A stretch of 64,000 bases of DNA from Obrimoposthia wandeli (taxonomy: Eukaryota). Made by a program: the position numbers and the translations under genes. The stretch is taken from the NCBI GenBank assembly GCA_977020255.1, contig CDROCS010000852.1, forward strand, positions 310,001-374,000, read 5' to 3'. Position 1 is the stretch's first letter; each line of letters starts with the position of its first letter. Shown here piece after piece: positions 998 through 36,841 of the stretch. The notes under the pieces were generated by a model that saw nothing but the letters and a program-made list of their open reading frames with translations, ran no database searches and was not told the DNA's origin.

Positions 998-1710
998 AGT
1001 AGGTAGAAGGATGGAGTCTAAGCCACTTGACCCCCCCCCTTATGGTGTGACACCCTTTAGGGGGAGGCAACATCCTTCTTTGATATACCACTATGGTCGT
1101 CCATAGATTAAAGGGTCAAGTGGCTTAGTCTCCACCCTTTTTGAGATATACCACTATGAAAGGGTCAAGTGGCTTAGTCTCCACCCTTCTTTTTGAGATA
1201 TACCACTATGAAAGGGTCAAGTGGCTTAGTCTCCACCCTTCTTTTTGTGATATATCACTATGAAAGGGTCAAGTGGCTTAATCTCCACCCTTCTTTTTTT
1301 GTGATATACCACTATGAAAGGGTCAAGTGGCTTAGTCTCCACCCTTCTTTTTGAGATATACCACTATGAAAGGGTCAAGTGGCTTAGTCTCCACCCTTCT
1401 TTTTGTGATCTAGTCTCCACCCTTCTTTTTGGTTAACCACTAATTCAAAAGGTCAAGTGGCTTAGTCTCCACCCTTCTTTTTGTGATCTAGTATCCACCC
1501 TTTTTTTTGGCTAACCACTAATTCAAAGGATCAAGTGGCTTAGTCTCCACCCTTCTTTTTGTGATCTAGTCCATAATGAAAATTTAGGATAAAGTTCACT
1601 CTTATCAGTTAAGAATGTATTACGTAATCACACACATACTATTCTATGTGAAAATTTAGATCAAAGTTTTTCCTAGGTTTACACATCTAAAGAATTATGT
1701 TAAAATTTGT
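998..1710 (+). repeat. Left terminal inverted repeat of Polinton A with internal ~50-bp tandem iterons
   Basis: Reverse complement of 11952-12705. Contains about eight copies of GGGTCAAGTGGCTTAGTCTCCACCCTT. Confidence 0.95.
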
Positions 1711-1773
1711 ATTAAATCAAAAAATAATAAATAAGAAAGAAGTCAGAGAAAAATACAAAATTAAACACATTTA

Positions 1774-4700
1774 TTATGTAATTTCATAATGTCCATAAGC
1801 GCGGCTTCTATTTTTCTCGATCCAATAGCGTTTGTCATCTGATGAGCTGAGAGCAGTCTTTTGTATTATGATCGTGTATAGTTGATGATTTATTGTTCCA
1901 AACTTCTTTTGAGGTATAGTATATGCAATACCGTTTTCATACACGTCTAAATATGTTTGATGTACAACCGTTGAACCCTTAAGATTTACTCCTTTTGATT
2001 TATTATTTTCAAAGTCATCTTCAAACTTAAGTGAATAACATTTACAAAGTAAGAAAATCCATTCTTTATACATTCGTCCTTCCGATTCATCTTTAAATAA
2101 ACCTATTTTACTATTAAATTTATTAGAATATAATGGATCATTCACATTATAATTTGACGTATCTAATAATCCATCTGCAATCATTTTTGGTAACAACTGT
2201 TTTCTTAAATTAACGTTTTTACATCCCAAAAAGAATGAGTCGGTATCACCGGCAACTATATTAATTGAACAATTGAATAAATTACGATATATTTGCAAAT
2301 CATGATACTGAAGAGTATACATTCGTAATTTGCTAAGGTCTAGTACAGCTTGACCTATATAATTTGGTCGATCGAGACAAATAAAGTCTTTTCTTAATAA
2401 AACAGCTATTAAATTATCATGAATTTCAATTGTTCGTTGAAACATAGGTTTGCTAGTATATGTAATTAATTTTGTAGAACTAGTGCAGATGCGAAGATTC
2501 AATCGTTTCTTAACATTTTCAACGGTCTTTCCATACAAACTAACATTTTTAAGTTTATAAAAATCTTTGTCACATTTATTCGTTGCTTGTGATCTCATTT
2601 CTGAATTATATTCTATATATTCTGCGAATATCTTAGCCTGAGAGAATTTTACTGCTCGATGAATAATTGTTACCACTGCTCCTAAACTAACATACATCTG
2701 CAATAGTCTCCAATGAATAACATAATGACTTTTTGGCGAATGAGTCATTAAAAGTTTTTCAACTTTTTTACCAGGTGGACATTTCTTTTCTGGAGCTATA
2801 GGAAGATCATCTAAAAAGTCATGAAGGTTTTCTGGTATTACCAAGTCTACTTCCATAAAATAACCATATTCAATATGTTCCATGTTCACATTTTTCATTT
2901 CATGCAATATTTCGTTTAATTTTATATCATCAAGAATCCATTCAAAATCTCCTTTTGGTAAAGGTTGATCAAGAGCCCATCCATATAAATTATTAACATC
3001 TATATATAAAAGACTTGTTTCTTCATCTGCGACTACATGATGCTTATTGACAAATGTCATTCCTCCTCGTATACCCGAAGAAATCATGTTGTACATTTCA
3101 GGATCCTGCATCAGTTAAACCTTATGTTTTAACATTTTTAGAGCACTTGCCCAACTCAATCCAGGAATGCTAAAAAAGTTAAGTGGTTCTAAACCATCTT
3201 CACTGAGAGCTTTTCTTCTGAATGTTTGAAACACGTCAGCTAATAAATATACGTCAGTCTTTAAGTAAACTAACATATAATCCAACATATTTCTACAATT
3301 GGTTATTTTCCAAACATCTTGTGCTTTTTGATATTCAGTGTCTGTGATTTTATCATTCCATTTTACTGGTAAACTTAACTTATTCTGGAGGACATTTAAT
3401 GATGTAGCAAAATCATATGGGAATATTCCTTTGCCATCAATAAGTTTAGATGGAAAAACTGATCTTGTTAATGGAATAGTTGGTAATTTACCGGCTAAAT
3501 TTTCCAAAGATGATTGCAAAAATTGCAAAGAATCTATAAATCTCAGAGTTATTTGACCTAATCTTACAATCATGGCTTGAAACTTTTCCGTTGATTGTGG
3601 TATAATATTTATATCCCAGTCAGTAAATTTATTCAATGCATGTTTTAAAATATGATGTAAATCATAACCTCTGAGATTATGAAACACAATAGGTAAAGTT
3701 GGACGAAGTTTTCTTGATAAATTACATTCATTGCATGCAGGACCTAGATACTGTCCAGTAAAGTGATCATGATCTTTAACATATTTTTCAGATGATTCGT
3801 GACATAAATAACATTCATCGGCATTGCTAAAAGTATGAATCTCTGCATTTGTTAAGGGAATCATTACGTTTTTAAGAGCATCTAAATACCATGGCAAAAC
3901 CTTTTCTTTAGCCAAGTTCTCTATTGACTGAAGAAATTTAACTATGCAGTCATCACCAACATTATATTGATACTGGGTTTCAATTTCATCTGTACTCATA
4001 AATAACATACCAGATGCGACAGGCATATGCTTTTGATGATAACTCTCATCTGGTACTAATACAGATTCAAAATCAGCGTAAACGACATATTTCGGCGATA
4101 TAGTTTTTGACCAATCGTTGAATTTAACGTACTTATTCTTAGGCATAGTATACATTGTAGTGCTTTCTTGATTATAGTCACATAAAACTTTATGCTTTTC
4201 TAATGACAAATCGGTTTTGAAACCATGTAAACACTTTTCACACCATTTTCTGCTAATTCTAGTCGTTCCAGTTCGAATATTTAATACCCGGTTAAGACAA
4301 CTTATTCCTATATAATGAAACCGTTCCTTGGATTCTAGTAACAATAAATTAACTATAGTTCCTTCCTTCATTTTTGATTTGTATGCAACATCGATATAAG
4401 GATTCTTGATAACATCAGTTTTTGATTCTTTTTCACTTACCTCGTTGAATATGAATACATTTATTATTATACCAGGATTTTGCCGTTCAAATTTTGATAT
4501 ATTTGATATTTTCATAGGCATGTCTTCGGAATTATATACAAAATCATTTAAAAATCTTTCATAGTTGCTTGGTCTATTTCTATGTGAGTCTATTTCATTA
4601 TATTTAAGTATTGACAATATTGCATAAATAAAGCAAAGATTATCAGAGTTTAGAATATTTATGACTGCTTTAGATTTTGTAAGAGAATTTGGTGATTTAA

Positions 4701-5414
4701 TACAAATTTTAATACAAATTTTAAACAAATTTGACTATATTTAGTAACAAAAAAAGCATATTCAAGTATATTCATCAATTTCCAACCACTACCTTTTTCT
4801 GAATATTCTTCAACTTTATTTTCCATTGTATCTTCCATTTCTGAAATTATAGCATGTGAAAAAATCATTGCTCGATGCGAAGCATACCATTCTTTAGTTT
4901 CTCCATCATTCTTTTCAAACCTCATTCTAATGATGTATTGTATCTTTGCTTTTCCCATTAATTGCACTATTCTTTCTAGTTCGTTTAATAATGAAACTGG
5001 AACCTTAAGACTTACAAGATTGAGATGATCTACTTTCATGGATATCATTGAATAACTATTTTCTAATGATGTTTTAGTATGTATATTATCATTTATTTTA
5101 CGTTTTCGTGACGGAGTAGGAGCTGAAATTACTATGTTTGATGGTACATTAATTATATCAGTTCTTTTGCTTAAAGCCGGTACTTTAAATAATTTTTTCT
5201 TACTATCATTTTCATATTCTCTTAAATGACTAACATGTCGACTATAAAATAAGTTGTAATCAACATTTTCAGTGCTTAAACATTGTGGACATATGAAATA
5301 ATTTATCCTTTTGTATGAATAACCATAATATTTTTTCATTATATCATGACATACTTGAGGATTAAAATGTATATCCGAATAACAAAAATTTGAATAAGTT
5401 TTACATATACTCAT
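1774..5414 (-). pseudogene. Protein-primed DNA polymerase B (pPolB) of Polinton A, split into three ORFs by one frameshift (~4700-4730) and one in-frame TAA (3115-3117)
   Basis: ORF 4659-5414 has a CPQC..H..H finger and GSGW. ORF 3115-4728 has AVINI..DNLCF, YADFES (ExoI), an EndoVII-like CYLC..DHDH..G..C..CN, FHNLRGYD, FIDS and YLKTDV. ORF 1774-3111 has GIRGG, YIDVNNLYG, KLKNVSLYGK, GDTDS, GLFKDE and DDKR. The junction reads HKV*LMQDPEM versus TVELIQDPEM in family C. Confidence 0.95.
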
Positions 5415-5519
5415 CTGATGATATGATTGATTTGATTGGACTTGAGATATTGGTTGATTTGTATACTGAATAAAAATATATATATATATAAATACAATAA
5501 TTTAATTATTTTACTTACA

Positions 5520-5960
5520 ATGTTAACAAATATTAATTATAAAGGAATTTGCTTAGATGATGTATCTAAATTAAAATTTCGAACACGACCAGAACAATAC
5601 GTTTATAAAGCCAAAGATTATACAATACTTATTTTTAGAAATAAGAAATGCAGGATTATGGGATGTAAGGTACCTATTAAAAATATTTCTTACCCTTTAA
5701 GAATAAATATACTTGGTATTCAATCAATTACGATATGTGAAAATTTAGATCAAAGTATCAATCTATTTAAATTATGGAATGTGTTACGTAATACATGTTC
5801 ATTTGACCCTGAGGTTTTCCCAGGCTTAAGATTAAATATTTTCAATCCATTGTGTGTAAATATTTTCACATCTGGAAAGGTCGTAATTTTAGGTCTTAGA
5901 AATTTAGATTTTCAAGATCAAGTTAACGATATCATGACATACATTAAAAAAAGAAGTTGA
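5520..5960 (+). CDS. TATA-box-binding-protein (TBP)-like protein, 146 aa, encoded by the Polinton
   Basis: Two-repeat TBP core pattern: TILIFRNKKCRIMG (cf. TALIFSSGKMVCTG), IQSIT (cf. IQNMV), SFDPEVFPGL (cf. SYEPELFPGL), VNIFTSGKVVILG (cf. LLIFVSGKVVLTG). First ATG is at 5520; the track's 5436 start is a TTG upstream of the TATA-rich tract. Confidence 0.85.
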   Translation: MLTNINYKGICLDDVSKLKFRTRPEQYVYKAKDYTILIFRNKKCRIMGCKVPIKNISYPLRINILGIQSITICENLDQSINLFKLWNVLRNTCSFDPEVFPGLRLNIFNPLCVNIFTSGKVVILGLRNLDFQDQVNDIMTYIKKRS

Positions 5961-6059
5961 ATGCTCGAAATACAAATTCTCGGATATAAAATAAATAAAC
6001 AGAATGAAACAACTCTCATCTGGAGGTTTCATACAGCGACCGAATATTTTGATGTTTAA
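5961..6059 (+). CDS. 32-aa micro-ORF MLEIQILGYKINKQNETTLIWRFHTATEYFDV
   Basis: The ATG directly follows the TBP-like stop (TGA ATG). Resembles the C-terminal IRLxGY...W motif of the family-B ORFan pair. Confidence 0.3.
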   Translation: MLEIQILGYKINKQNETTLIWRFHTATEYFDV

Positions 6060-6140
6060 TAAATATTTAATAAAATGTTGTTATTGTTATAAACATGTAC
6101 TTATTCTGATATATTTATTTTATATTAATATTTATATATA

Positions 6141-6770
6141 ATGTTATTAACAAACAATTCGACTTTTCAAGTAGTAGGACCAAGTGGTAGTGGAAAAACT
6201 TTATTTGTTTGTAAATTATTAAATTCAAAAATGTTTAAAAATAAATTTAATAAAATATATTGGCATCAAGGTGGTGACGGAGAAGCTGGTTTAACAAACC
6301 AAGAATTTAATAAAATAAAAAACATTAAGATTATTAACGGTTTTGATGAAAATTGGACGACAAGACTCGTAAAAGGTGATGTAATTGTTATTGATGACTT
6401 ATATCAAGAGGCTAACAAAGAATCTGATTTTAATGATTTATTTACAAAAATTGCAAGACATAGAGAAGTTACTGTAATTTTTATAACCCAAAATTTATTT
6501 CATCAAGGAGGAAATCATCGTACTCGTAATCTTAATGTACATTATTTGATTTTATTCAAAAATCCTAGAGATCAAACAGTGATAGATTTTATTGCTCGTC
6601 AAGCATTTCCTCATAACAAGAGTTATTTAATTGATGCGTTTCATGATGCTACATCTTTACCTCATGGTTATTTATTTTTAAATTTTACTCAATCATGTCC
6701 TGATGATTTAAGAATTGTTACTGATATATTTAACCGTAATGGTATTACAGTCTATAAACAAAATAAATAA
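6141..6770 (+). CDS. A32/FtsK-like genome-packaging ATPase
   Basis: Walker A GPSGSGKT, Walker B VIVIDDL, then ARH...ITQNLF and [17 protein letters not shown], typical of Polinton ATPases. Confidence 0.95.
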   Translation: MLLTNNSTFQVVGPSGSGKTLFVCKLLNSKMFKNKFNKIYWHQGGDGEAGLTNQEFNKIKNIKIINGFDENWTTRLVKGDVIVIDDLYQEANKESDFNDLFTKIARHREVTVIFITQNLFHQGGNHRTRNLNVHYLILFKNPRDQTVIDFIARQAFPHNKSYLIDAFHDATSLPHGYLFLNFTQSCPDDLRIVTDIFNRNGITVYKQNK

Positions 6771-6790
6771 TAATAATGTTTTAAAATAAA

Positions 6791-7204
6791 ATGAATTTTA
6801 AAAAGAGTATTCTTAAACATAGTAAAAGGACAGATAAAGATGAAGTTAAAAAATTAATAAACACTGTATTATATGATCGTAATAATATTGAATTTTCAAA
6901 AAGTTTACCTTATTTTAAAACCTTAATTGACGTACCAAAAACGAATAAAATGAAAATGTTGAAATCATTTCCAATTTATGTAGTTGATGATTTAATAAAA
7001 ATTTTAAATAAAATAATTTATGGTAAAATTAAACCTGATGATAATATTTTAAAATATAAAAATTCATTAATAAATTTAGCAAATTCACGTGGTAAAATTA
7101 ATAAAAGAAACATTATTTATAATCAAAATGGCGGTTTCATATTGGCCCTACTGCCCGCTATAGCATCAGCAATAGCTAGTGTTATATCTTCAAGATGGGG
7201 ATAG
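6791..7204 (+). CDS. Basic putative virion core protein with C-terminal QNGG|F amphipathic tail
   Basis: Lys-rich 137 aa ending NQNGGFILALLPAIASAIASVISS. Homologue at 28383-28730 ends KQNGGFIGPVILVVASII. This position between ATPase and integrase is common in Polintons. Confidence 0.7.
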   Translation: MNFKKSILKHSKRTDKDEVKKLINTVLYDRNNIEFSKSLPYFKTLIDVPKTNKMKMLKSFPIYVVDDLIKILNKIIYGKIKPDDNILKYKNSLINLANSRGKINKRNIIYNQNGGFILALLPAIASAIASVISSRWG

Positions 7205-7303
7205 TTGTCTTAATAACGAAAATTATAATAATATTAAATAATTACATTCTTTCGTTTTATACAAACATATAAACAGTTTAAAATATATTTAACTTTTATA
7301 ATA

Positions 7304-7477
7304 ATGGGGATAAACAATACAAAGTTGTCTAACTTAATTATAAATTTTAATTCTTCATGCTGCAATGGAAAAGATTTGGAACAATCCAGAAGATCCAGAC
7401 GGTTATACAGGGTTAGAAAAATTGACAAAAAGAGTCAAACAATCAAAAACAAACACACAAAAATGGTTAAGAAATGA
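7304..7477 (+). CDS. 57-aa MG...CC ORF overlapping the integrase start in another frame
   Basis: MGINNTKLSNLIINFNSSCCNGKDLEQSRRSRRLYRVRKIDKK... is below the ORF-track cutoff. Homologue MGANPSLPKFKFSFYSNCCNGEDMVQ... at 28759-28977. Confidence 0.65.
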   Translation: MGINNTKLSNLIINFNSSCCNGKDLEQSRRSRRLYRVRKIDKKSQTIKNKHTKMVKK

Positions 7478-8391
7478 ATTATCATATAGTCTGAATAAAC
7501 CTTTAAGACGTAAATTCCCTACTAGATCATATAAAACTAATGGTATTAATTCGTTATGGCAGATGGATTTAATGGAAATGATTCCTTATTCTTCAGTAAA
7601 TAACGGATTCAAGTATATTTTAACTTGTATTGATGTATTTAGTCGTTTTGCAAGGGCAGTTGGTGTTAAATCAAAATCAGGTATTGATTTATTACATGCA
7701 ATAGAATCTTTAATTGTTGATGATGTACCAGTAAATATTCAAACCGATGAAGGTAAAGAATTTTTTAATTCACATGTTAAGAAATTATTTAAAACTGAAA
7801 ATATCAATCATTATTCAGTATATTCTCAATATAAAGCTGCAGTAGTTGAAAGATTTAATAGAACGTTAAGAGAACGGTTAAAGAAATATTTTACTAAACA
7901 AGGTAATAAGAAATGGGTGAATGTATTACCAAAAATTATTTATGCTTATAATAATTCTAAACATAGAGGTTTAGATGGTTTAAAACCTGTAGATGTAAAT
8001 AATAAAAATGAATTTGATATTTTGTTGAAACAAAATCTAAAAAGAAAAGAAAGTTAAATCTAAATATAAAATTGATGATTATGTTCGAATATCAAAAATA
8101 AGTACAAGTCCATTTATTAAAAATTTTAATCAAAATTGGAGTGATGAGGTTTTTCAAATTCATGATATTAATTATAAACAAAATCCAATAATGTATATTT
8201 TAAAAGATATTGATAACGTCATCATCAAAGGAAAATTTTATAAACAAGAGTTACAATTAATTGATAAACCTAAACTATATCGAATACAAGAAATTTTAGA
8301 AACTAAAGGTCGTGGTAAGAATAAACAATATTACGTAAAGTGGCACGGATACTCTGAACCTTCTTGGATATTTGCTTCTCAAATTGAATAA
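7365..8391 (+). CDS. Retroviral-type DDE integrase with C-terminal chromodomain; +1 frame break at 8041-8057
   Basis: WQMDL, IQTDEG and VERFNRT form the DDE triad. The +1 frame from 8053 reads VKSKYKIDDYVRISK...NWSDEVF...FYKQELQ...YRIQEIL...YYVKWHGY (chromodomain). Confidence 0.92.
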
Positions 8392-9404
8392 TGTCAAAAT
8401 ATATTATTTTACCTAGTAATAGTTGTCCAAGTACTCAACCTAACAATACAGCCAATCAATTTACTGTAGATTGGGAAAACTCTCTAAATTTAGATGGTGA
8501 ATGGGAGGTTGCCTTGACTGAATTTGTATTTAATTATACTCCTTTAACAATACAAACTAATTCAAAAATACTTTATAAAACGGAAAAGATAGAAATGAAA
8601 ACTTTCGATGTATCTTTTGCAATTTTAAATGGATTAATTTTTAATAATTTAAATACTGTTTTCAATTTCAAAATTACAAAGGATCAAAAATTAGAAATAA
8701 GTACAATTAACAGTATTCATCGAATGTTGTTAAAATTCGAAACTTTAGAAGAATCAAAAATTATAGGTTTTAATGAAATACAAAAAATTTCTAGTCATGT
8801 TATAACAAGTGATGAAATTGTTGACATAAATAAAAATATTCATGCTAAAATGAGAATTACAATTTATTATTTAGCTGAATATGAATACGAAATAAAATTT
8901 AATCAAAATTATTTGATACAAGATAGTTCTTCATTATGTAATATTATAGCCAGTAAATGTAATGAAATTTTTAAAAGCTGTAATATAGATTCAGACGGAT
9001 TATTTGATATTTTATTAAAGAAAAATGTAAAATCAGTTTTATTTGACGAAAAACTTGCATCTTTATTAGGTTTTAATAATGTTTTCTTTGAGAAACGAAT
9101 TAAAGGTTTTCAAAAACCAACACTTTCTAGCTCATATAATCAAATGTATATTTATACTAGTTTAACAGATTCTGTCTTAGTAGGATCTGATTATGTTCCA
9201 CTGTTAAAGTCTATTTGGTTAAAATCATTAAAATATCGATATGGAGATGTAGTAAATGTTAAAATTGATAATCCAATGTACTTGAAAATGAGAGATTCAA
9301 GTATTAATAGAATCGAGGTAAATATACGTGATGATTCTGGTAATTTAATTCCATTTTCATATGGAGCAAAAACTAGTTTAACTCTTCATTTACGTAAAGT
9401 ATAA
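8391..9404 (+). CDS. Minor capsid (penton-like) protein
   Basis: Polinton mCP pattern: N-terminal LPSNS...NTANQF...L.G.WEVALTE and C-terminal MYIYTSL...LVG...VPLLK...PMY...INRIEVNIRDDSG..IPF..G...LTLHLR. Confidence 0.8.
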   Translation: MSKYIILPSNSCPSTQPNNTANQFTVDWENSLNLDGEWEVALTEFVFNYTPLTIQTNSKILYKTEKIEMKTFDVSFAILNGLIFNNLNTVFNFKITKDQKLEISTINSIHRMLLKFETLEESKIIGFNEIQKISSHVITSDEIVDINKNIHAKMRITIYYLAEYEYEIKFNQNYLIQDSSSLCNIIASKCNEIFKSCNIDSDGLFDILLKKNVKSVLFDEKLASLLGFNNVFFEKRIKGFQKPTLSSSYNQMYIYTSLTDSVLVGSDYVPLLKSIWLKSLKYRYGDVVNVKIDNPMYLKMRDSSINRIEVNIRDDSGNLIPFSYGAKTSLTLHLRKV

Positions 9405-9441
9405 ACAATATAAATATATTTAAAATATAAATATATATAAA

Positions 9442-9845
9442 ATGAATACATCAATTATAAAATTTTATAGCAAAAGTCAACAGGGCGGTGAACTTCCCTA
9501 TTTCATTGGTAAACAATATGGATCTGGTTGGTATCAAACTATTTCTAGATTAGCTATTCCATTTATTAAAAAGTTGGTTTATCAGCAGCTACAAGTGCTG
9601 CCAATGTAATTGGTGAAACGGTAGGAACTGCGTTAACAAATCCAAAAAACATAATTTCATCTCTCAAAGAAAATACAATCAAAGAAGTCAAAACTTTGAT
9701 TCCAAAATTAAAAAATAATGCTGTTGAGAGTTTAAATAAAGTCGCAAATTGTGTTGAACAAAATGGAAAGGGTCTTAAACGTAAAAGAAATAATTTAAAT
9801 AGTATAAACAAACGTCTTAAAGGTACTATTTTCCAAAATGACTAG
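9442..9845 (+). pseudogene. Putative protease-cleaved membrane-lytic/core protein upstream of MCP; 1-nt frameshift at ~9570
   Basis: MNTSIIKFYSKSQQGGELPYFIGKQYGSGWYQTISRLAIPFIK, continuing in the -1 frame as KVGLSAATSAANVIGE...QNGKGLKRKR...IFQND. The break lies in an A5 run (A6 restores the frame). Confidence 0.65.
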
Positions 9846-11058
9846 TATAAAATCTGAATTGTGTATTTTCGATAGACCACTACCTCAAGTAGTGATTGAA
9901 AATTCAAGTTTTGAAGAAATATTTCCAATCAATTCAATTACTGGAAAAAATTTAAATGACATAGAATTTAATATTCATGCATCTGAAGAAGATTATCTGG
10001 ATTTGAATGATACTTTGTTAAATATTAAATTAAAAGTTGTAAATGAAGATGGTACTGATTTAATGAAAGATAGCGATGTAACTCCAGAGAATTACATGTT
10101 TCAAACTTTGTTTAGAGATGTTATTCTAACACTTAATAATGTAAAGGTTGAAGGAGGAAATGGAACGTATACTCATAAGGCTATATTCGATACTCTTTTG
10201 AATTTTAGTAGTGATACCAAGTATACTAACCTTGAATGTTCCGGGTATGATGATGATGCAGAAAATCGTAAACAATGGATTAGTGAATCTAAAATATTTT
10301 CATTGTGTAATTCAATTAGATTAGATTTCTTTGATCAACCAAAATATTTGATTCCAGGGATTAATGTTCATTTGAGATTTATGAGAAATCAGCATAATTT
10401 TTCGCTCTATTCAGAAACTTCAAAACCAATTATTCAAATTCTAGATGCTAGATTGTATGTTAGAAGAGTAAAAGTTGATTCTTCAGTAATGATTGGACAT
10501 CAGTTAGGTTTGCAAAGTCAGAATGCAGTTTACCCAATTAGAAAAACTCAGTTAGTAACATATTCAATTCCTCAGGGTTCTTTGGAACTTAATAAAGATC
10601 AAATATTCGGAGACTATCGTTTACCCAAGTTCATTTTGATTGCTTTCAAAGATACACCTCAGGGTGGTAAGGAATACAAAGTTAAATCTTCTACGTTCAA
10701 TACATTTAATGTTTCAACAATATCATTAGCTAGAAATACAGATTATCGAGAAACTTATAATCTAGATAATAACAATTTTTCATTAGCATATATGCAGTCA
10801 ATTATTCGAAATATGAATATTTTAGATAAAAACGTGAATAATGGTATCAGATTTTCTGATTTTAAATCAGGAAGTTCGATTTTCACTTTTCTATTAGCAC
10901 CAGATTTTGATATAAACACTACTCAAGTGCCTAAAACTGGTAATTTAAGACTTGAAATTAGATTTAATTCTCCTTTGACCGTTCCAACAAGTGTTTTGAT
11001 TTACGGAATATTTGATTCCGAAATTCAGATTACGAAAAATAAAACTGTGATTGTATGA
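9838..11058 (+). CDS. Major capsid protein (double jelly-roll, Polinton PY/hexon-like), intact 406 aa
   Basis: SELCIFD.P..QVVIE...EEIFPINS, IEF.I...E.DYLDLNDT, FFDQPKYLIPG, A.YPI, LPKFILIAF and GNLRLEIRF..PL motifs typical of Polinton MCP. Confidence 0.9.
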   Translation: MTSIKSELCIFDRPLPQVVIENSSFEEIFPINSITGKNLNDIEFNIHASEEDYLDLNDTLLNIKLKVVNEDGTDLMKDSDVTPENYMFQTLFRDVILTLNNVKVEGGNGTYTHKAIFDTLLNFSSDTKYTNLECSGYDDDAENRKQWISESKIFSLCNSIRLDFFDQPKYLIPGINVHLRFMRNQHNFSLYSETSKPIIQILDARLYVRRVKVDSSVMIGHQLGLQSQNAVYPIRKTQLVTYSIPQGSLELNKDQIFGDYRLPKFILIAFKDTPQGGKEYKVKSSTFNTFNVSTISLARNTDYRETYNLDNNNFSLAYMQSIIRNMNILDKNVNNGIRFSDFKSGSSIFTFLLAPDFDINTTQVPKTGNLRLEIRFNSPLTVPTSVLIYGIFDSEIQITKNKTVIV

Positions 11059-11431
11059 AGTAAGCTTATTGTATATTATATTCTTTATTTAAATTAGTAC
11101 TTTAGAAATTCATAAATCCGGAAAAATATTATTGAATAACAAATTTAATGGAGTATATTCATTGGATAAAATTCCATCATTAAAACCCGGAGGTTACATT
11201 ATCAATACTCATACTTCAAATCTACCAGGCGAACATTGGATAGCAATATTCGTTGACAGATTCGAGATTCGAGTGTTTGATCCTTTTGGATTCTATTATC
11301 CTGCAAAGTTGGTGTCTACACTTGAAAAAGAAAACATTCCAGTCTACTATAATCGAGTTAAATGTCAGAATCCATTAACTAAAAACTGCGGACCTCTGAG
11401 TCTTTTATGGTTGAAACTTCAACACAAATAA
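11055..11431 (+). CDS. Adenain-like cysteine protease with a predicted 38-nt intron (11060-11097)
   Basis: Spliced product MNTLEIHK...GVYSLDKIP...INTHTSNLPGEHW...FDPFG...CQ.....CG has the catalytic His, Asp and Cys. The ATG overlaps the MCP stop (ATGA). Confidence 0.85.
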
Positions 11432-11898
11432 TTTTAAGTATAAACAAATATATCATTATAGATTTTCATTTTATTTTTTCAAATGGCTTTTATATGAATG
11501 TTTTATTGATAATAATGGAGAATATATTCTTGTCTTGTTCATTTCATTACGTGTTTAAAAATCAAATACCATGGAGTAGTTTATCATTTACAGTTAAAAG
11601 AAAAAATCTATATTTGATAAATCATCATCATCAGTTATCCTGGTTTGAAGGTGAAAGCTCTGATATTCATATTGATGATGTTGAAACAATATTCTATGTT
11701 ATGGATTCTATTGATGGAAAGAAAATTAATTTAGTGAAACGAATGTTTCCAAATTTGAGAATTGTGAATTATAATAAAAGTTTCAAAAATTTAAAGAAAA
11801 TGCCAAAAAATATTCGATGTCCGTTTAGAAAACACGGAAAACATTGTGCTTATTTGAAATGTTTTTCTCTATGTATTGATTATGTAAATTGTATATAA
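11407..11898 (+). CDS. Accessory protein resembling a DEDD/Maelstrom-like nuclease-fold ORF seen in invertebrate Polintons
   Basis: IIIDFH...FK..IPWSSLS...KRKN.YL..HHHQLSWFEG...CPFRKHGKHCA pattern, recalled from Polinton accessory ORFs and not verified. Confidence 0.45.
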   Translation: MVETSTQIILSINKYIIIDFHFIFSNGFYMNVLLIIMENIFLSCSFHYVFKNQIPWSSLSFTVKRKNLYLINHHHQLSWFEGESSDIHIDDVETIFYVMDSIDGKKINLVKRMFPNLRIVNYNKSFKNLKKMPKNIRCPFRKHGKHCAYLKCFSLCIDYVNCI

Positions 11899-11951
11899 AT
11901 ATATTTATTAAGGATATTTTATTTTAATATATAATTTATGTTATTTAAATA

Positions 11952-12705
11952 AATTTTACCATAATTCTTTAGATGTGTAAGCCTGGAAAAACTTTGATCT
12001 TAATTTTCACATAGAATAGTATGTGTGTGATTACGTAATACATTCTTAACTGATAAGAGTGAACTTTAGTCTAAATTTTCACATAGAATAGTGTGTGTAT
12101 GATTACGTCATACATTCCTTAACTGATAAGAGTGAACTTTATCCTAAATTTTCATTATGGACTAGATCACAAAAAGAAGGGTGGAGACTAAGCCACTTGA
12201 CTCTTTGAATTAGTGGTTAGCCAAAAAGAAGGGTGGAGACTAGACCACAAAAAGAAGGGTGGAAACTAAGCCACTTGACTCTTTGAATTAGTGGTTAGCC
12301 AAAAAGAAGGTGGAGACTAGACCACAAAAAGAAGGGTGGAGACTAGATCACAAAAAGAAGGGTGGAGACTAGATCACAAAAAGAAGGGTGGAGACTAAGC
12401 CACTTGACCCTTTCATAGTGGTATATCACAAAAAGAAGGGTGGAGACTAAGCCACTTGACCCTTTCATAGTGGTATATCTCAAAAAGAAGGGTGGAGACT
12501 AAGCCACTTGACCCTTTCATAGTGGTATATCACAAAAAGAAGGGTGGAGACTAAGCCACTTGACCCTTTAATCTATGGACGACCATAGTGGTATATCAAA
12601 GAAGGATGGAGTCTAAGCCACTTGACCCCCCCTAAAGGGTGTCACACCATAAGGGTATATGTTGCCTCACCTCCGGTGGGGGGGGTCAAGTGGCTTCTAC
12701 CTACT
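11952..12705 (-). repeat. Right terminal inverted repeat of Polinton A
   Basis: Mirrors 998-1710. About six full and several truncated GGGTGGAGACTAAGCCACTTGAC units, plus an extra ~73-bp tandem duplication near 12000-12148. Confidence 0.95.
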
Positions 12706-28382: not shown

Positions 28383-28730
28383 TTGAACCTTTTTATTAAA
28401 ATGAAGAAAATACAAAGAAGCATACCCTATTTTAAAGCTTTAGTCAAAGCCTCTTCTCAAAAGAAAATGATTATTCTTAAAGGATTTCCATTTTTTATTG
28501 CAGATGATTTATTGGAAGTTTTGTATAATATAGTTTTGGGTCGAGTAAAAGTTAGAAATCGGAAAAATATATTAAAGAAATATAGAAAAACTCTTCTAGA
28601 TATTGCTAATGTAAAAAGTAAAAAAAGGAAACGAAATATTATTCTTAAACAGAATGGTGGTTTCATAGGGCCTGTTATTTTAGTAGTTGCTTCAATTATC
28701 ATTAGTATTATAGCTGCGACACGATCATAA
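28383..28730 (+). CDS. Basic core protein homologue (QNGG|F tail), Polinton B
   Basis: SIPYFKALV...GFPFFIADDLLEVL...KQNGGFIG aligns with 6791-7204. Confidence 0.75.
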   Translation: MNLFIKMKKIQRSIPYFKALVKASSQKKMIILKGFPFFIADDLLEVLYNIVLGRVKVRNRKNILKKYRKTLLDIANVKSKKRKRNIILKQNGGFIGPVILVVASIIISIIAATRS

Positions 28731-28758
28731 ACAATTATTTATAAAATCAGCTAAAGAT

Positions 28759-28977
28759 ATGGGTGCTAACCCTTCTTTACCTAAATTTAAATTTTCTTTC
28801 TATTCAAATTGTTGTAATGGAGAAGATATGGTTCAACCCAAAAGATCCAATTGGCTACACAGGAGTTTCAAAATTAGCAAAAAGAACAAAACAAAATTAC
28901 AAGAAAACGCAGAAATGGCTGAGCGACCAGTTAGCCTACAGTCTGAACAAGCCGATGAGAAGAAGGTTTCCAACTAG
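28759..28977 (+). CDS. MG...CC overprinted ORF, Polinton B
   Basis: Homologue of 7304-7477 with the same overlap geometry around the integrase ATG (28817). Confidence 0.6.
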   Translation: MGANPSLPKFKFSFYSNCCNGEDMVQPKRSNWLHRSFKISKKNKTKLQENAEMAERPVSLQSEQADEKKVSN

Positions 28978-29846
28978 AACTTACAAAACCAGCGGTCCTA
29001 ATAATTTATGGCAAATGGATTTGATGGAGATGATCCCATATTCTTCCATTAATAAGGGATATCGATATATTTTAACATGTATTGATGTATTTAGCAGGTT
29101 TGCTCGTGCAATTCCAGTTAAAGCAAAGTCTTCAATAGCTATGCTTGAAGCCATTAAAGAAATATTAAAAGAGGACATTCCACAAAATGTGCAAACTGAT
29201 TTAGGAAAAGAATTTTATAATAAGCAAGTTAAATCTTTATTTAAACAAAATAATATAAATCACTACTCTGTGTTTTCACAGTATAAAGCAGCAGTAGTAG
29301 AAAGATTTAATCGTACTTTAAGAGATAGAATAAAAATGTATTTCACAAAAGAAGGAAATAAAAAATGGATCCAAGTTTTGTCTAAAATAATACATGCATA
29401 TAATCACTCTGAACATAGAAGTCTCAAGGGAATGAGACCTGTTGATGTTACTAATAAATACTCTATGGATATTTGGTTAGACAGGAATAAAAAAGAAAAT
29501 ATTAAAAAAAGTTAAATATAAGAAAAACGAATATGTTCGAATTTCTAAAATTAGCTCTACTTCATTTATTAAAAATTTTTATCCGAATTGGAGCGATGAA
29601 ATATTTTGTATAAGTAAAATTGATCAAAAGAATAATCCAATAATGTATACTATTAAAGATGCTGACAATAATATCGTTCACGGTAAATTTTACGAGCAAG
29701 AACTACAAGTAATATCAAATAAACCTAGCGTTTTCCGTATTCAAAAAATATTAAAATCTAAGGGTACCGGTAAACATAAACAATACTTTGTTAAATGGCA
29801 TGGTTATTCATACCCAACTTGGTTATCAGCATCTAATATAATATGA
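28817..29846 (+). CDS. Integrase-chromodomain of Polinton B; +1 frame break at 29504-29515
   Basis: MEKIWFNPKDP...WQMDL...VQTDLG...VERFNRT. The +1 frame from 29511 reads VKYKKNEYVRISK...YFVKWHGY. Confidence 0.88.
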
Positions 29847-31251: not shown

Positions 31252-32320
31252 AAAAGTGTTCATAAGCCAGTCTAACGTTCTTTTCTACACAAAAGCGCTT
31301 GTCGTCATTTCTACTCAAAACAATTTTGTTGTATTATTGGAATGCAGATGGGCGCTTGGAATAAATCTAGTTTGCTCAACGTTTTCAATACACATCATAA
31401 ACTTTCCGATAGGTCTCATGTGTAAGATTGTTTCTTCCCACACCCTTTGCTCTAATTTATTAATAGATGTGTATTATTATGTACATGTATTATTAGATGC
31501 ATGAAAACTATAGAATTTAGTACGTAGGAAAATACAATCATCATACGAAACGTGACCTTCGCTTTCATCCTTAAATTCCCCGATAATATCCTTTAAACTC
31601 ATAGAGTGTAGATTATGACTAACGGGACATGTATGGGTATCAATTAAGTTGTCCCTAAACATTGCCGATAATAATTGATTATCTAAACTAACATTCCTAC
31701 ATTCTAAAAAGAAAGAATCAGTGTCCCCAACTGCGATTTTGATCTCACATTTGAATTCGTGGCGATATTTCTCTAATTCTATATATTGGAGCTCGTACAT
31801 TCTGAGTTTAGAAATGTCTAAAACCGTTTGACCTATATATCGAGACATATACTCAGTTTTCCAAATAACACTGCTACCAGGTCATCTGCAATTGTAAAAC
31901 TACGGTTGAAGTTGTACTTGCTAATATATGCTATTAGTTTACGCTCATCATTGCAAAACCGTAGACAAATACGTTTTTGCAAGTCCTCTATAGATTTTCC
32001 AAAGAGACTATTACTTTTTAACTTGTAAAAATCCCAATCGAATTTGCTAGTGGCCAAATTACGTTTTCTAGAATTCTTCCCAATATAGTCTTTAAACACA
32101 AAGTTTTGACTAAAGCTTATACCACGATGAATTCGAGTGATTTTCGTTCCCAACTTTAAGTAGAATTGAAGAAGCCGCAAAATGCGCCACATAATTCAAC
32201 TTGTCTTCATGTGTTAACAATAATTTCTTAACCTTTGAATTAATTGGACATTAATAAACATGTGCTACTGAAAGATCATCTAATTTATCATGCACATTGG
32301 GAGGGATTTTTAAATCATAT
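31252..32320 (-). pseudogene. pPolB C-terminal half (distinct from the family A and C polymerases)
   Basis: YDLKIPPNVHDKLDDL, YKLKSNSLFGK, YIGQTVLDISKLRMYE, VGDTDS, GEFKDE and DDKR in broken frames. Confidence 0.9.
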
Positions 32321-34083: not shown

Positions 34084-36841
34084 GGATATTTTTAAGAATC
34101 CTTTTATTGATATATTATATCGAACCACCAATCCTGGCGGCAATCCTGTTAATCTGATTCTGTTAGAAGAAGGAGAGAAATATCACTACGTTGCAGTTCC
34201 AAATCTTAATAGGCTTCTAAACTATTATAACAAAGAAGAAGGTTCTACACGAATTCGATGTATATGGTGTCATAAATGTCTTCATGGATTTAGACGGGCA
34301 ATAAGTTTTGAGAAGCATAAACCTCTTTGTATGATGAATATGGAACATAATACACTATACCAGATGCCGGAGGACAAATATATTCAATTCACAGATTTTT
34401 CAAAATCGATTTCTCCACCATTTGTTGTTTACGGGGATTTTGAATCAGTTCTCCCACCCCATGGTATTCATCATCAAATTCATCTCCCGATTGCAGCCGG
34501 TATGTTAATGTCTCCAATTGCTGCAACAGGATTACTCATGATTACTCCTTTTCAATGGTGAATATTGTGTTGTTGATTTTCTTTCCAAGCTGGAAATGCT
34601 AGTAAAGACAGTTGTTTTGCCTTGGTATAAGATACATGCTGCGGAAGTTATGCAAACACTTACATCTGGGCAAATAGCTAGTTTTAAATCGGCTACTAGT
34701 TGTTACCTCTGTAATAAGACATGCATTAAAAAGGTACGAGACCATGATCATATGATGGGTAAGTACCTTGGAGCTGCTCACAGTAAGTGCAATTTATCTA
34801 GACGAGTAAATCGTACTCTCCCAGTGGTGTTTCATAACCTGAGAGGGTATGATCTCCATCAGATTCTCAAACATGCGCTGAGCAACTTTTCTGACTGGAA
34901 TGTCTCTGTTATACCTCAATCAACAGAGAAATTCCAAGCAATGATAGTGCGTATTGGAGGAGTTTGTATTCGATTCATCGATTCATTGTAGTTTTTGAAT
35001 AGTAGTCTTGAAAAACTCATAGAAAACTTAGTTTCCATTCCATTGACACATTCTGTTTTTCAACCTCATCTTGTGAATGGTAAAGGGATATTTCCATATG
35101 ATATGGCGGTATCAGAGAGTGCTCTCCGATCAATAACAAGCCTTCCACCAAAATGGGATGAGAAGATCAAAAGTGAACAATATGAGTTGGTGGAGAAAGT
35201 CTGGCACGAGAGTGGGTGTGAATCTCTTTGGGACTATATGTTGGTATATCTCAAAATGGATGTATATCTACTTGCGGATGTGTTTACAACATTTCGAGAG
35301 AAGGCTATCGCCGATTATGGATTGGAACCACTCAATTTCTTCTCTATCCCAGGTTAGATATTATTATTATTATTTTTCATTATTTAATTTTACATAGGTT
35401 TAACATTTGCAAGCGCTTTCAAGTCATTACTGGGTACTGAGTCAAGCGCAGAAAAACCGAGGGTTCCAGGCGGATCTACTGTGGAATTGATTCAAGATCC
35501 TGAGATGCATCGACTGTTTGAAGAAGGTATTCGTGGAGGAATGACCTTTGTGAACGAACATAAGATTACTAACTCTGATGATGATACTATTTTGTATATT
35601 GATGTTAACAATCTTTTTGGATGGGCTATGTCCCAATTTTTACCGGTTGGAGATTTTATCTGGGTAACTGACCGATTGCAATTAGAAGTAATAATTCATG
35701 AGCTCTCATATAAGGATCTAAGCTGTAGTGATTATGCTAATTTAATGGAAGTAGATATAAGTATTCCGAATGAATTGCATGATAAACTTGACGATCTTCC
35801 CTTAGCTCCACGTAAGGATTGCCCGCCTGGAAGTCGTACTTCTAAATTACTTTTAACTCATTATCCAAAGAAGCATTACACTGTCCATTCTCGTTTGCTT
35901 CAAATGTATCTGAGGCTTGGGGCTAAAATAGATTTCTTGCATAGAGCAATTCGGTTTGCACAAACCAATGTTTTTGCAAAGTATATAGAAGACAATTCAA
36001 CAAAAAGGGCTGCTGCTACTAATGATTTTGAACGAGATTATTATAAGCTGAAAGTTAATTCGCTATTCGGAAAATTGATTGAGAATTTGAAAAGCGAATT
36101 AATTTAAGGATTTGTAATACGTCTCAAAAACTTGTTACTTATTGTAGTAAGGCACAATTTCAACGCACTATAGAAATAGATTCTGATCTAATAACTGTTT
36201 TACTGAATAAAGATGATTTGTTTGGATATAGTTATATGGGCCAGGCAGTACTAGATCTTAGCAAATTGCGAATGTATGAGCTCCAGTACGTGCAACTTGA
36301 GAAATATCGTCAGAAATTTAGTTGTGATATTAGAATTGTTGCTGGGGATACTAACAGTTTCTTCTTGAAATGTAGAAATGTGGATGTAGAAGCACAATTG
36401 CTACCAGCAATGGTTTCTGATGGATTATTAGATACATCTAAGTATCCTAAAAATCACCCTCTTTATTCAACAGCTAACACTGCGATAGGAAAGTTTAAGG
36501 ATGAAAGTAAGGGTATTTGTATTTATACGGAATGTATATTTCTTCGTCCAAAATGTTATAGCCTAAAAACTATCAATGATGAATCACATATGAGAGCAAA
36601 GGGAATTAATCTTAAACAGAGTAATTTAAAACACGAGAATTACTTAGCTGTTTATGAGACAGGTATAAGTAAGCGTGTTCAACAAAGTCGTATAACGTCC
36701 GTTAATCATCAGCTATATACTATGCATTTATCTAAAATAGCATTGTGTAGTGCGGATGATAAGCGAAAATGGGTTGAAAAGAATCGGTCAGTCGCATATG
36801 GTCATTATCTTCATCCGGATGAGTATATTATGAATGAATGA
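34080..36841 (+). pseudogene. pPolB of Polinton C with a predicted 45-nt intron (35353-35397), a nonsense codon (34989-34991) and frameshifts
   Basis: VYGDFES, CYLC..DHDH, FHNLRGYD, YLKMDV, GIRGG, YIDVNNLFG, KVNSLFGK, AGDTNS, GKFKDE and DDKR. Splicing gives FSIPG|LTFASAFK, matching family A FSIPGLSWASALK. Confidence 0.92.

Follow-up and report, generated by a model that had tools for sequence, protein, structure and literature searches.

An overprinted micro-gene family at the integrase start of one Polinton clade, with predicted lipid anchors

Introduction

Two questions stand out for animal-type Polintons: what decides whether an element integrates or spreads in particles, and by what means its capsids get across membranes. 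A locus in the genome of Obrimoposthia wandeli may bear on both. In a 64,000-nt stretch of one contig, the whole of which was analysed and is referred to here as the window, a short ORF that opens with ATG-GG runs in another frame over the start of an integrase gene, and a second Polinton family in the window repeats the arrangement. An initial annotation read these ORFs as a hidden membrane-associated microprotein with an N-terminal glycine, a cysteine pair and a polybasic tail, which would also act as an overlapping uORF throttling integrase translation. The question raised by the locus is whether the ORF is a gene and, if so, what its product may do.

N-myristoylation (NMT) and S-acylation follow established sequence preferences. 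The myristoylated entry and egress peptides of non-enveloped viruses, such as picornavirus VP4, reovirus mu1N, polyomavirus VP2, agnoprotein and the adenovirus death protein, are small, lipid-modified or membrane-bound, and act in entry or release. In overlapping uORFs and leaky-scanning bicistronic viral mRNAs, an out-of-frame upstream ORF spans the main AUG. In adintoviruses, the small predicted membrane-active virion proteins include PLA2X, GasderminX and Cupiennin as well as the "Macc" class, with myristoylation signals mentioned for some Macc proteins in the accessible parts of the papers concerned (PMC8502044, PMC11071296).

Results

Two Polinton families carry the ORF in the window

Copy A is a complete, adintovirus-like Polinton/Maverick (Table 1) flanked by a 6-bp target duplication in which 5 of 6 bases match. 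Its Pfam matches cover pPolB (PF03175), rve integrase (PF00665), an A32-like ATPase (Pox_A32) and, weakly, Chromo. No capsid or penton match to Pfam or NCBIfam was found among the proteins of this element, and the genes that we take to be major capsid, penton and protease were assigned by characteristic motifs and by comparing the order of genes in relatives. The PX-like gene of copy A has a weak Adeno_PX match (E 0.024, below cut-off). Copy B is decayed, with an integrase 67% identical to that of copy A, and both families are present in at least 150 copies each in the genome.

Table 1. Positions of the features discussed (window coordinates unless a locus is named)
Feature	Position	Strand	Remarks
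Copy A, Polinton/Maverick	998..12705		long terminal inverted repeats, AGTAG…CTACT ends
PX-like gene A	6791..7204	+	QNGG/F and hydrophobic C-terminus; upstream of microprotein ORF
ATAAACA box A	7269..7275	+	35 nt before microprotein ATG; predicted late promoter
Microprotein ORF A	7304..7477	+	57 aa, MGINNTKLSNLIINFNSSCCNGKDLEQ…; Gly2 at 7307-7309, Thr6-Lys7
Second ATAAACA in ORF A	7310..7316	+	55 nt before integrase ATG; only A among 13 CC lineages
Cys-Cys A	7358..7363	+	TGC TGC; follows alternating hydrophobic stretch; just outside overlap
Integrase A	7365..8057	+	frame ends codon 230; chromodomain part in another frame, to 8391
Basic patch A	7385..7444	+	SRRSRRLYRVRKIDKKSQTI, over integrase codons 8-27
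PX-like gene B	28401..28730	+	in decayed copy B; TAA within ATAAACA box
ATAAACA box B	28727..28733	+	32 nt before microprotein ATG
Microprotein ORF B	28759..28977	+	72 aa, MGANPSLPKFKFSFYSNCCNGEDMVQ…; Ser6
Cys-Cys B	28810-28815	+	TGT TGT
Integrase B	28817..29515	+	frame ends codon 232 in window copy
Distant frame -1 ORFs	L104:3913-4146, L109:70-288, L128:91-330, L100:2746-2982, L107:611-838, L119:1686-1907

The two ORFs translate exactly as the initial annotation had claimed, both off-frame (frame -1) from the integrase, with ATGs 61 nt (A) and 58 nt (B) upstream of those of the integrases. The Cys-pair codons stand 7 nt upstream of the integrase ATG in both copies, and, as had been stated, they lie outside the overlap and differ between the copies; the "NG" that follows is dictated by the integrase A-ATG-G. 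The pattern ATGGG-N40-60-TGYTGYAATG matches twice in the window and in none of 100 shuffles. ORF A also carries an out-of-frame ATG at 7357, in a weak context.

Copies lacking the ATG or stopped before the Cys pair would have spoken against the gene. Of the 30 best copies retrieved for each family, all 30 of A and 22 of B retain an intact ORF, and the other eight B copies have scattered private lesions. These copies were chosen by closeness to the window integrases and carry little information on selection. Contigs from two public runs, aligned to copy A, have no variant at 10% or more within 7304-7365 and no joints at the copy A locus. The public runs listed for the sequence are four from one sample, with no run listed as RNA among them. 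A third high-copy family in the same genome, family C (L141-L200), encodes MGSLPSIPKFNLKIKSSCC, with an in-frame AUG 12 nt upstream of MG, and L095 also has an upstream in-frame AUG.

Several other features of these elements deserve record. Both window integrase frames are lost within an A-rich run at codons 230-232 (about 8040-8057 and 29495-29515); by hand count, the frame is short in about 70 of the 150 listed A copies and open for 346 codons or more in about 65, and it is short in 3 of 30 B copies. Such shortened frames could reflect a spreading defective subfamily, homopolymer error or recoding. The window also holds further Polinton polymerase gene fragments (31477-32192, minus strand; 34596-36841, plus strand) and a TBP-like gene (5520-5960; PF00352, E 2.5e-12), which is present in L064/L065, L076 and L082 as well; adintovirus TBP genes are already named in a supplement of PMC11071296. 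The protease-like gene opens with ATG-NN/GTAAG, a short AT-rich stretch and YAG in the window (11055-11097) and in L065, L066, L069 and L076, and a conserved intron directly after the start codon is predicted for all five lineages (L066 by eye). Accessory genes found by eye at L069:952-1260 and L084:775-1959 resemble a dual-specificity phosphatase and a RING-finger protein.

The ORF is conserved across one integrase clade

A metagenome scan by integrase alignment was restricted to the best 80 of 338 confirmed loci, 60 of which were scored; the remaining 20, including four above 50% identity that begin at a contig end, were left out for a missing integrase start, missing upstream DNA or a weak match. 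Together with A and B, the scored loci collapse into 48 lineages at 85% identity. A quick integrase tree with SH-aLRT support only, built on 48 rows after L137 was removed and family C included, places 27 lineages on one branch with a support of 99, and 26 of them, at a median integrase identity of about 54%, carry the microprotein ORF, both counts applying to the best 80 of 338 loci.

The ORF takes two forms, MG-(10-16 aa)-CC in 14 lineages of the branch and MGN…INCACF in 12, two of which are truncated where their contigs end. Overall, 10 to 43 residues separate MG from the Cys motif. The integrases of L101, the remaining member of the branch, and of 17 outgroup lineages lack the ORF. The conservation that the initial annotation had proposed to test is seen within this clade: all 23 complete scored ORFs carry ATG-GG in frame -1, Gly2 is present in 24 of 24 complete clade ORFs, and the 14 CC lineages combine this invariant glycine with an invariant Cys pair. 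Two profile searches, which covered proteins of 24-109 and 29-168 residues, yielded 51 database proteins of the INCACF type and 17 of the CC type. Some of them duplicate query inputs, and none has an informative name or a Pfam domain. Profiles of the two forms cannot be aligned with each other (probability 2%), so that the case for a common origin is one of position, frame, layout and clade. No relatives came from searching IMG/VR with the integrase, and a scan for the box-MG-CC pattern yielded 120 loci, none with an integrase, and seven chance MG…CC frames.

More distant lineages offer partial parallels. In L104, L109 and L128 a short M…CC..C ORF that lacks Gly2 stands 46-49 nt ahead of the integrase AUG. 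Frame -1 ORFs over the integrase start recur in distant elements with 36-42% integrase identity (Table 1), as Cys-pair types without Gly2 and, in L107 and L119, as a different type. Poly-Val/Ala N-terminal extensions were also seen on the database integrases P0067, P0072, P0079, P0085, P0096, P0103, P0104 and P0115, and are likely mis-called starts that read the Ser-rich tail of the microprotein in another frame.

Codon variation points to selection on the protein

Among 25 ATGGG sites within 300 nt before the integrase, 23 are in frame -1, corresponding to 23 complete ORFs; in shuffled sequences an open MG…CC or CxC frame arose in 3 of 6900. All four glycine codons (GGA, GGT, GGG and GGC) are used at Gly2. 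Differences by codon position 1/2/3, counted in blocks anchored on the Cys motif, amount to 0.31/0.30/0.52 in the CC form and 0.22/0.11/0.51 in the INCACF form, and pN/pS is 0.61 and 0.23, respectively, values that are uncorrected for saturation and slightly circular since the anchor is included. Over 130 codons the microprotein frame contains no stop, and the other two frames contain 17 and 16. Selection thus acts on the protein, given the varied Gly2 codons, the peak of variation at third positions and the many stops in the other frames; the protein-level selection that had been suspected from the Cys codons of two copies is borne out by synonymous variation, third-position excess and frame-specific stop avoidance. 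We conclude that the microprotein is almost certainly a real coding gene.

The overlapped tail

Among CC-form ORFs the overlap runs on for 37-129 codons without a stop, where null medians are 2-35. Frame -1 has no stop across the first 30 integrase codons in 11 of 13 CC lineages, 1 of 12 INCACF lineages and 7 of 22 outgroup lineages; stop avoidance in the overlapped frame is clear for the CC form and weak for the INCACF form. The CC basic patch, taken over integrase codons 8-27, carries a net charge of +0.33 per residue, compared with +0.20 under synonymous resampling and about +0.23 once stops are excluded, and about two thirds of the CC tail charge can be traced to the integrase codons. Relative to the stop-free null, 10 of 12 CC lineages show a positive excess (L076, whose ORF stops earlier, was omitted), though it is small and drawn from related, non-independent lineages. 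INCACF tails are net negative in 47 of 51 proteins. "Polybasic" is therefore a partial, form-specific feature: the term used by the initial annotation suits the mildly basic CC form and fails for the acidic INCACF form, and its suspicion that the basic tail is a by-product of overprinting is right for most of the charge, with a small excess left over.

Synonymous-site suppression in the overlapped integrase codons, proposed by the same annotation as a check, was not found: integrase 4-fold sites stand at 0.40 overlapped versus 0.35 free, and 2-fold sites at 0.55 versus 0.63. The tail varies in length and charge among lineages. In L084, a duplicated WFQRSFKSR contains 4 base differences, all silent in frame -1 and all altering the integrase frame, which supports, as a single post hoc case, the reading of the tail as protein.

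A box common to capsid and packaging genes precedes the ORF

ATAAACA boxes occur in the window at 5995, 6089, 6754, 7269, 9401, 9804 and 11440, and in copy A and its relatives L062-L087 they stand about 30-41 nt before most same-strand genes, including the PX-like gene of copy A (37 nt before the ATG). None lies on the polymerase strand of copy A, and the box is absent from outgroup elements. A box is found 28-45 nt before the microprotein ATG in 12 of 13 CC lineages (shuffle rate 0.8%), the distance being 14 nt in L061 and 39 nt in family C. The same interval holds a box before the major capsid ATG at 8 of 8 CC-lineage loci, before the ATPase in 12 of 13 rows and before the PX-like gene in 9 of 13, and before the integrase ATG in none of 13 CC lineages and the TBP-like gene in none of 6 rows. 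For INCACF ORFs, ATAAAC lies 28-45 nt upstream in only 3 of 10 and ATAAACT lies inside in 8 of 10. A caveat is that the TAA of the box doubles as the PX-like stop in 10 of 13 CC lineages (not in A, L066 or L068). In two lineages a stray ATG follows the box at 7 and 10 nt, which would be compatible with a TATA-like box whose leader is no longer than 10 nt.

That capsid and ATPase (packaging) genes have the box too is indirect support for a late or virion class of the microprotein, which would likely be the first ORF of a shared mRNA. The uORF layout that had been proposed is present, the microprotein being the first ORF ahead of the integrase and spanning its AUG, always in frame -1. We lean towards a single mRNA for the CC-form microprotein and the integrase; against this, the integrase may have its own start from an internal box (the second box of A; ATAAACT in the INCACF form). 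Much leakage past the first AUG is disfavoured because its context is strong, with a purine at -3 and G at +4 in 13 of 13 CC lineages. Nor does leaky scanning gain from the internal AUGs, which are not clearly depleted (CC, 1 seen and 2.2 expected; INCACF, 31 seen and 22.5 expected).

Three other accounts of the layout were considered and are disfavoured. A poly(A) signal is disfavoured by the fixed distance from the box to the next ATG and by its location within the upstream coding region before the capsid gene; for splicing round the ORF, GTRAG donors are present in only 2 of 14 lineages and in none of A, B and C; and a frameshift fusion to the integrase disagrees with the integrase ATG that follows the Cys motif in every lineage and with the scattered ORF stops.

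Terminal motifs, structure models and database searches

Ser or Thr occupies position 6 in 8 of 14 CC peptides, and Pro, Leu or Ile in 5 of 14, residues that by NMT preference predict a poor site and argue against lipidation. Of 44 INCACF peptides, 36 have Asn3, 17 have Cys4 and 33 have an additional N-terminal Cys. Several members that lack the glycine have runs of Cys instead, and the three distant M…CC..C lineages keep CC without Gly2. The INCACF motif itself may resemble the adenovirus protease cofactor pVIc. An AlphaFold model of the B protein has low confidence (mean pLDDT 60, pTM 0.24) and a disordered N-terminal half, and the ESM Atlas, whose model has a pLDDT of 0.30, gave no usable feature match. 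Sequence searches of Pfam, NCBIfam, PHROGs and PDB with the microprotein returned nothing credible, and a PDB profile search found no homology (best E 6.6). An open-access literature search found no paper describing the ORF; term look-ups in the accessible text of PMC11161782 and PMC5803895 met no mention of it, and its motifs are absent from the readable parts of the adintovirus supplements, whose other parts may include it.

Discussion

The ORF over the integrase start belongs to an overprinted micro-gene family of one Polinton clade that is real, with comparative evidence strongly in its favour, and apparently undescribed. As to what its product does, lipid anchoring draws its best support from Ser/Thr6, the MGNC-type starts (17 of 44) and the Cys runs of some Gly-less members, and we regard the predicted Gly2 myristoylation and Cys-pair acylation as probable. 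In the mechanism that we propose, Gly2 would be myristoylated and the Cys pair S-acylated, giving two lipid anchors with an amphipathic strand between them, to which the basic patch of the CC form would add membrane grip. The ATAAACA box would serve as a late promoter, and the microprotein would be expressed late along with the capsid proteins, its AUG coming first on an mRNA that likely also encodes the integrase. On a very short leader, some ribosomes may miss this cap-proximal AUG and continue some 60 nt to that of the integrase. The microprotein ORF would likely lower integrase output, and its peptide would work at host membranes when particles assemble or leave.

Taken whole, a lipidated late micro-gene with a membrane role in assembly or exit that likely lowers integrase output is our best explanation, offered tentatively and somewhat short of probable; a role in particle assembly, exit or entry, judged separately, is plausible to about the same degree. 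The sequence fits a virion role and another membrane role alike, the PX-like gene being an alternative candidate for a membrane-active peptide in the same element. That the microprotein is an unrecognised core virion gene, doubly acylated and holding the late promoter with the integrase relegated to the second ORF, seems to us doubtful.

Known systems resemble the family in part. Most of the membrane peptides of non-enveloped viruses differ in being cleaved from, or in being, capsid chains, and overlapping uORFs differ in that the microprotein product is itself protein-selected and has the stronger claim to the promoter. Judged by the accessible parts of the adintovirus papers, which describe no overprinting (PMC8502044, PMC11071296), the microprotein fits the loose "Macc" idea (PMC11071296) but none of the named membrane-active classes (PMC8502044), having no PLA2, gasdermin, pX or holin-like domain. 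Geminivirus C4/AC4 is a small ORF over the 5' part of a replication gene, with a myristoylation motif, an S-acylated Cys and a largely disordered product, according to the accessible parts of PMC8160170 and PMC6093331. The microprotein is likewise an overprinted small ORF with predicted Gly2 and Cys anchors, but the likeness is one of anatomy only: there is no sequence link (no Pfam family across 23 microprotein members), the microprotein starts upstream of the overlapped gene and overlaps it by its tail only, that gene is an rve integrase, and the microprotein has its own late-type box and a core under purifying selection. By this comparison it is a C4 analogue, not a member.

The microprotein might instead work as C4 does, as a non-structural and mostly disordered protein, acylated twice, that sits at host membranes and alters signalling or antiviral silencing. 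This would account for the common anatomy (an overprinted replication gene, a myristoylation motif and S-acylated Cys, in the accessible parts of PMC8160170 and PMC6093331), for the low-confidence model with its disordered N-terminal half and for the variable tail. It sits badly with a box common to capsid and packaging genes and with purifying selection on the core, C4 being reportedly under positive selection, and we consider it unlikely. Conservation at the DNA level, as promoter or Kozak context with no role for a peptide, could draw on the INC codons, which spell ATAAAC in 8 of 10 INCACF lineages, and on the CC codons, which where the spacing is tightest provide the purine at -3 relative to the integrase AUG. 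The codon analysis already largely refutes it, however, since Gly, Cys, Ala and Phe codons vary synonymously with an excess at third positions, stops are avoided in the microprotein frame only, spacer lengths stay in-frame and CC is kept at anything from 7 to 37 nt from the integrase AUG; we find this reading scarcely credible.

The remaining two readings centre on the integrase. If the ORF were mainly a regulatory uORF, with the conserved peptide or its overlap governing how the integrase is translated and the cysteines needed for stalling, metal binding or a disulfide rather than lipid, the constant frame -1, the invariable spanning of the integrase AUG and the retention of a Gly-less M…CC..C ORF in L104, L109 and L128 would follow readily; a throttle, though, needs no invariant Gly2, no Asn3/Cys4 preference and no open tail of 37-129 codons, and the MG-to-Cys spacer varies from 10 to 43 residues, which makes this improbable. 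The microprotein could instead be a partner of the integrase in cis, translated from the same mRNA and tethering it to membranes or bringing it into particles, as its fixed linkage to the integrase in 26 lineages (among the best 80 of 338 loci) and the lack of an own box for the CC-form integrase might suggest; yet the overlap alone explains the linkage, and the integrases of L101 and the 17 outgroup lineages do without the microprotein, so that we hold such a partnership to be quite improbable.

The microprotein represents a concrete clade-wide gene missed by standard ORF cut-offs, through which gene callers are likely to have wrongly extended integrase N-termini. The map of the predicted promoter ties it to the capsid genes, and the overlap would give a translational link to the integrase. 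On the doubtful reading of a core virion gene, one short mRNA leader would set the balance between particle making and integrating, and capsids supposed to be naked would owe to the acylated peptide a membrane route out of the cell or into it, perhaps with the integrase taken along.
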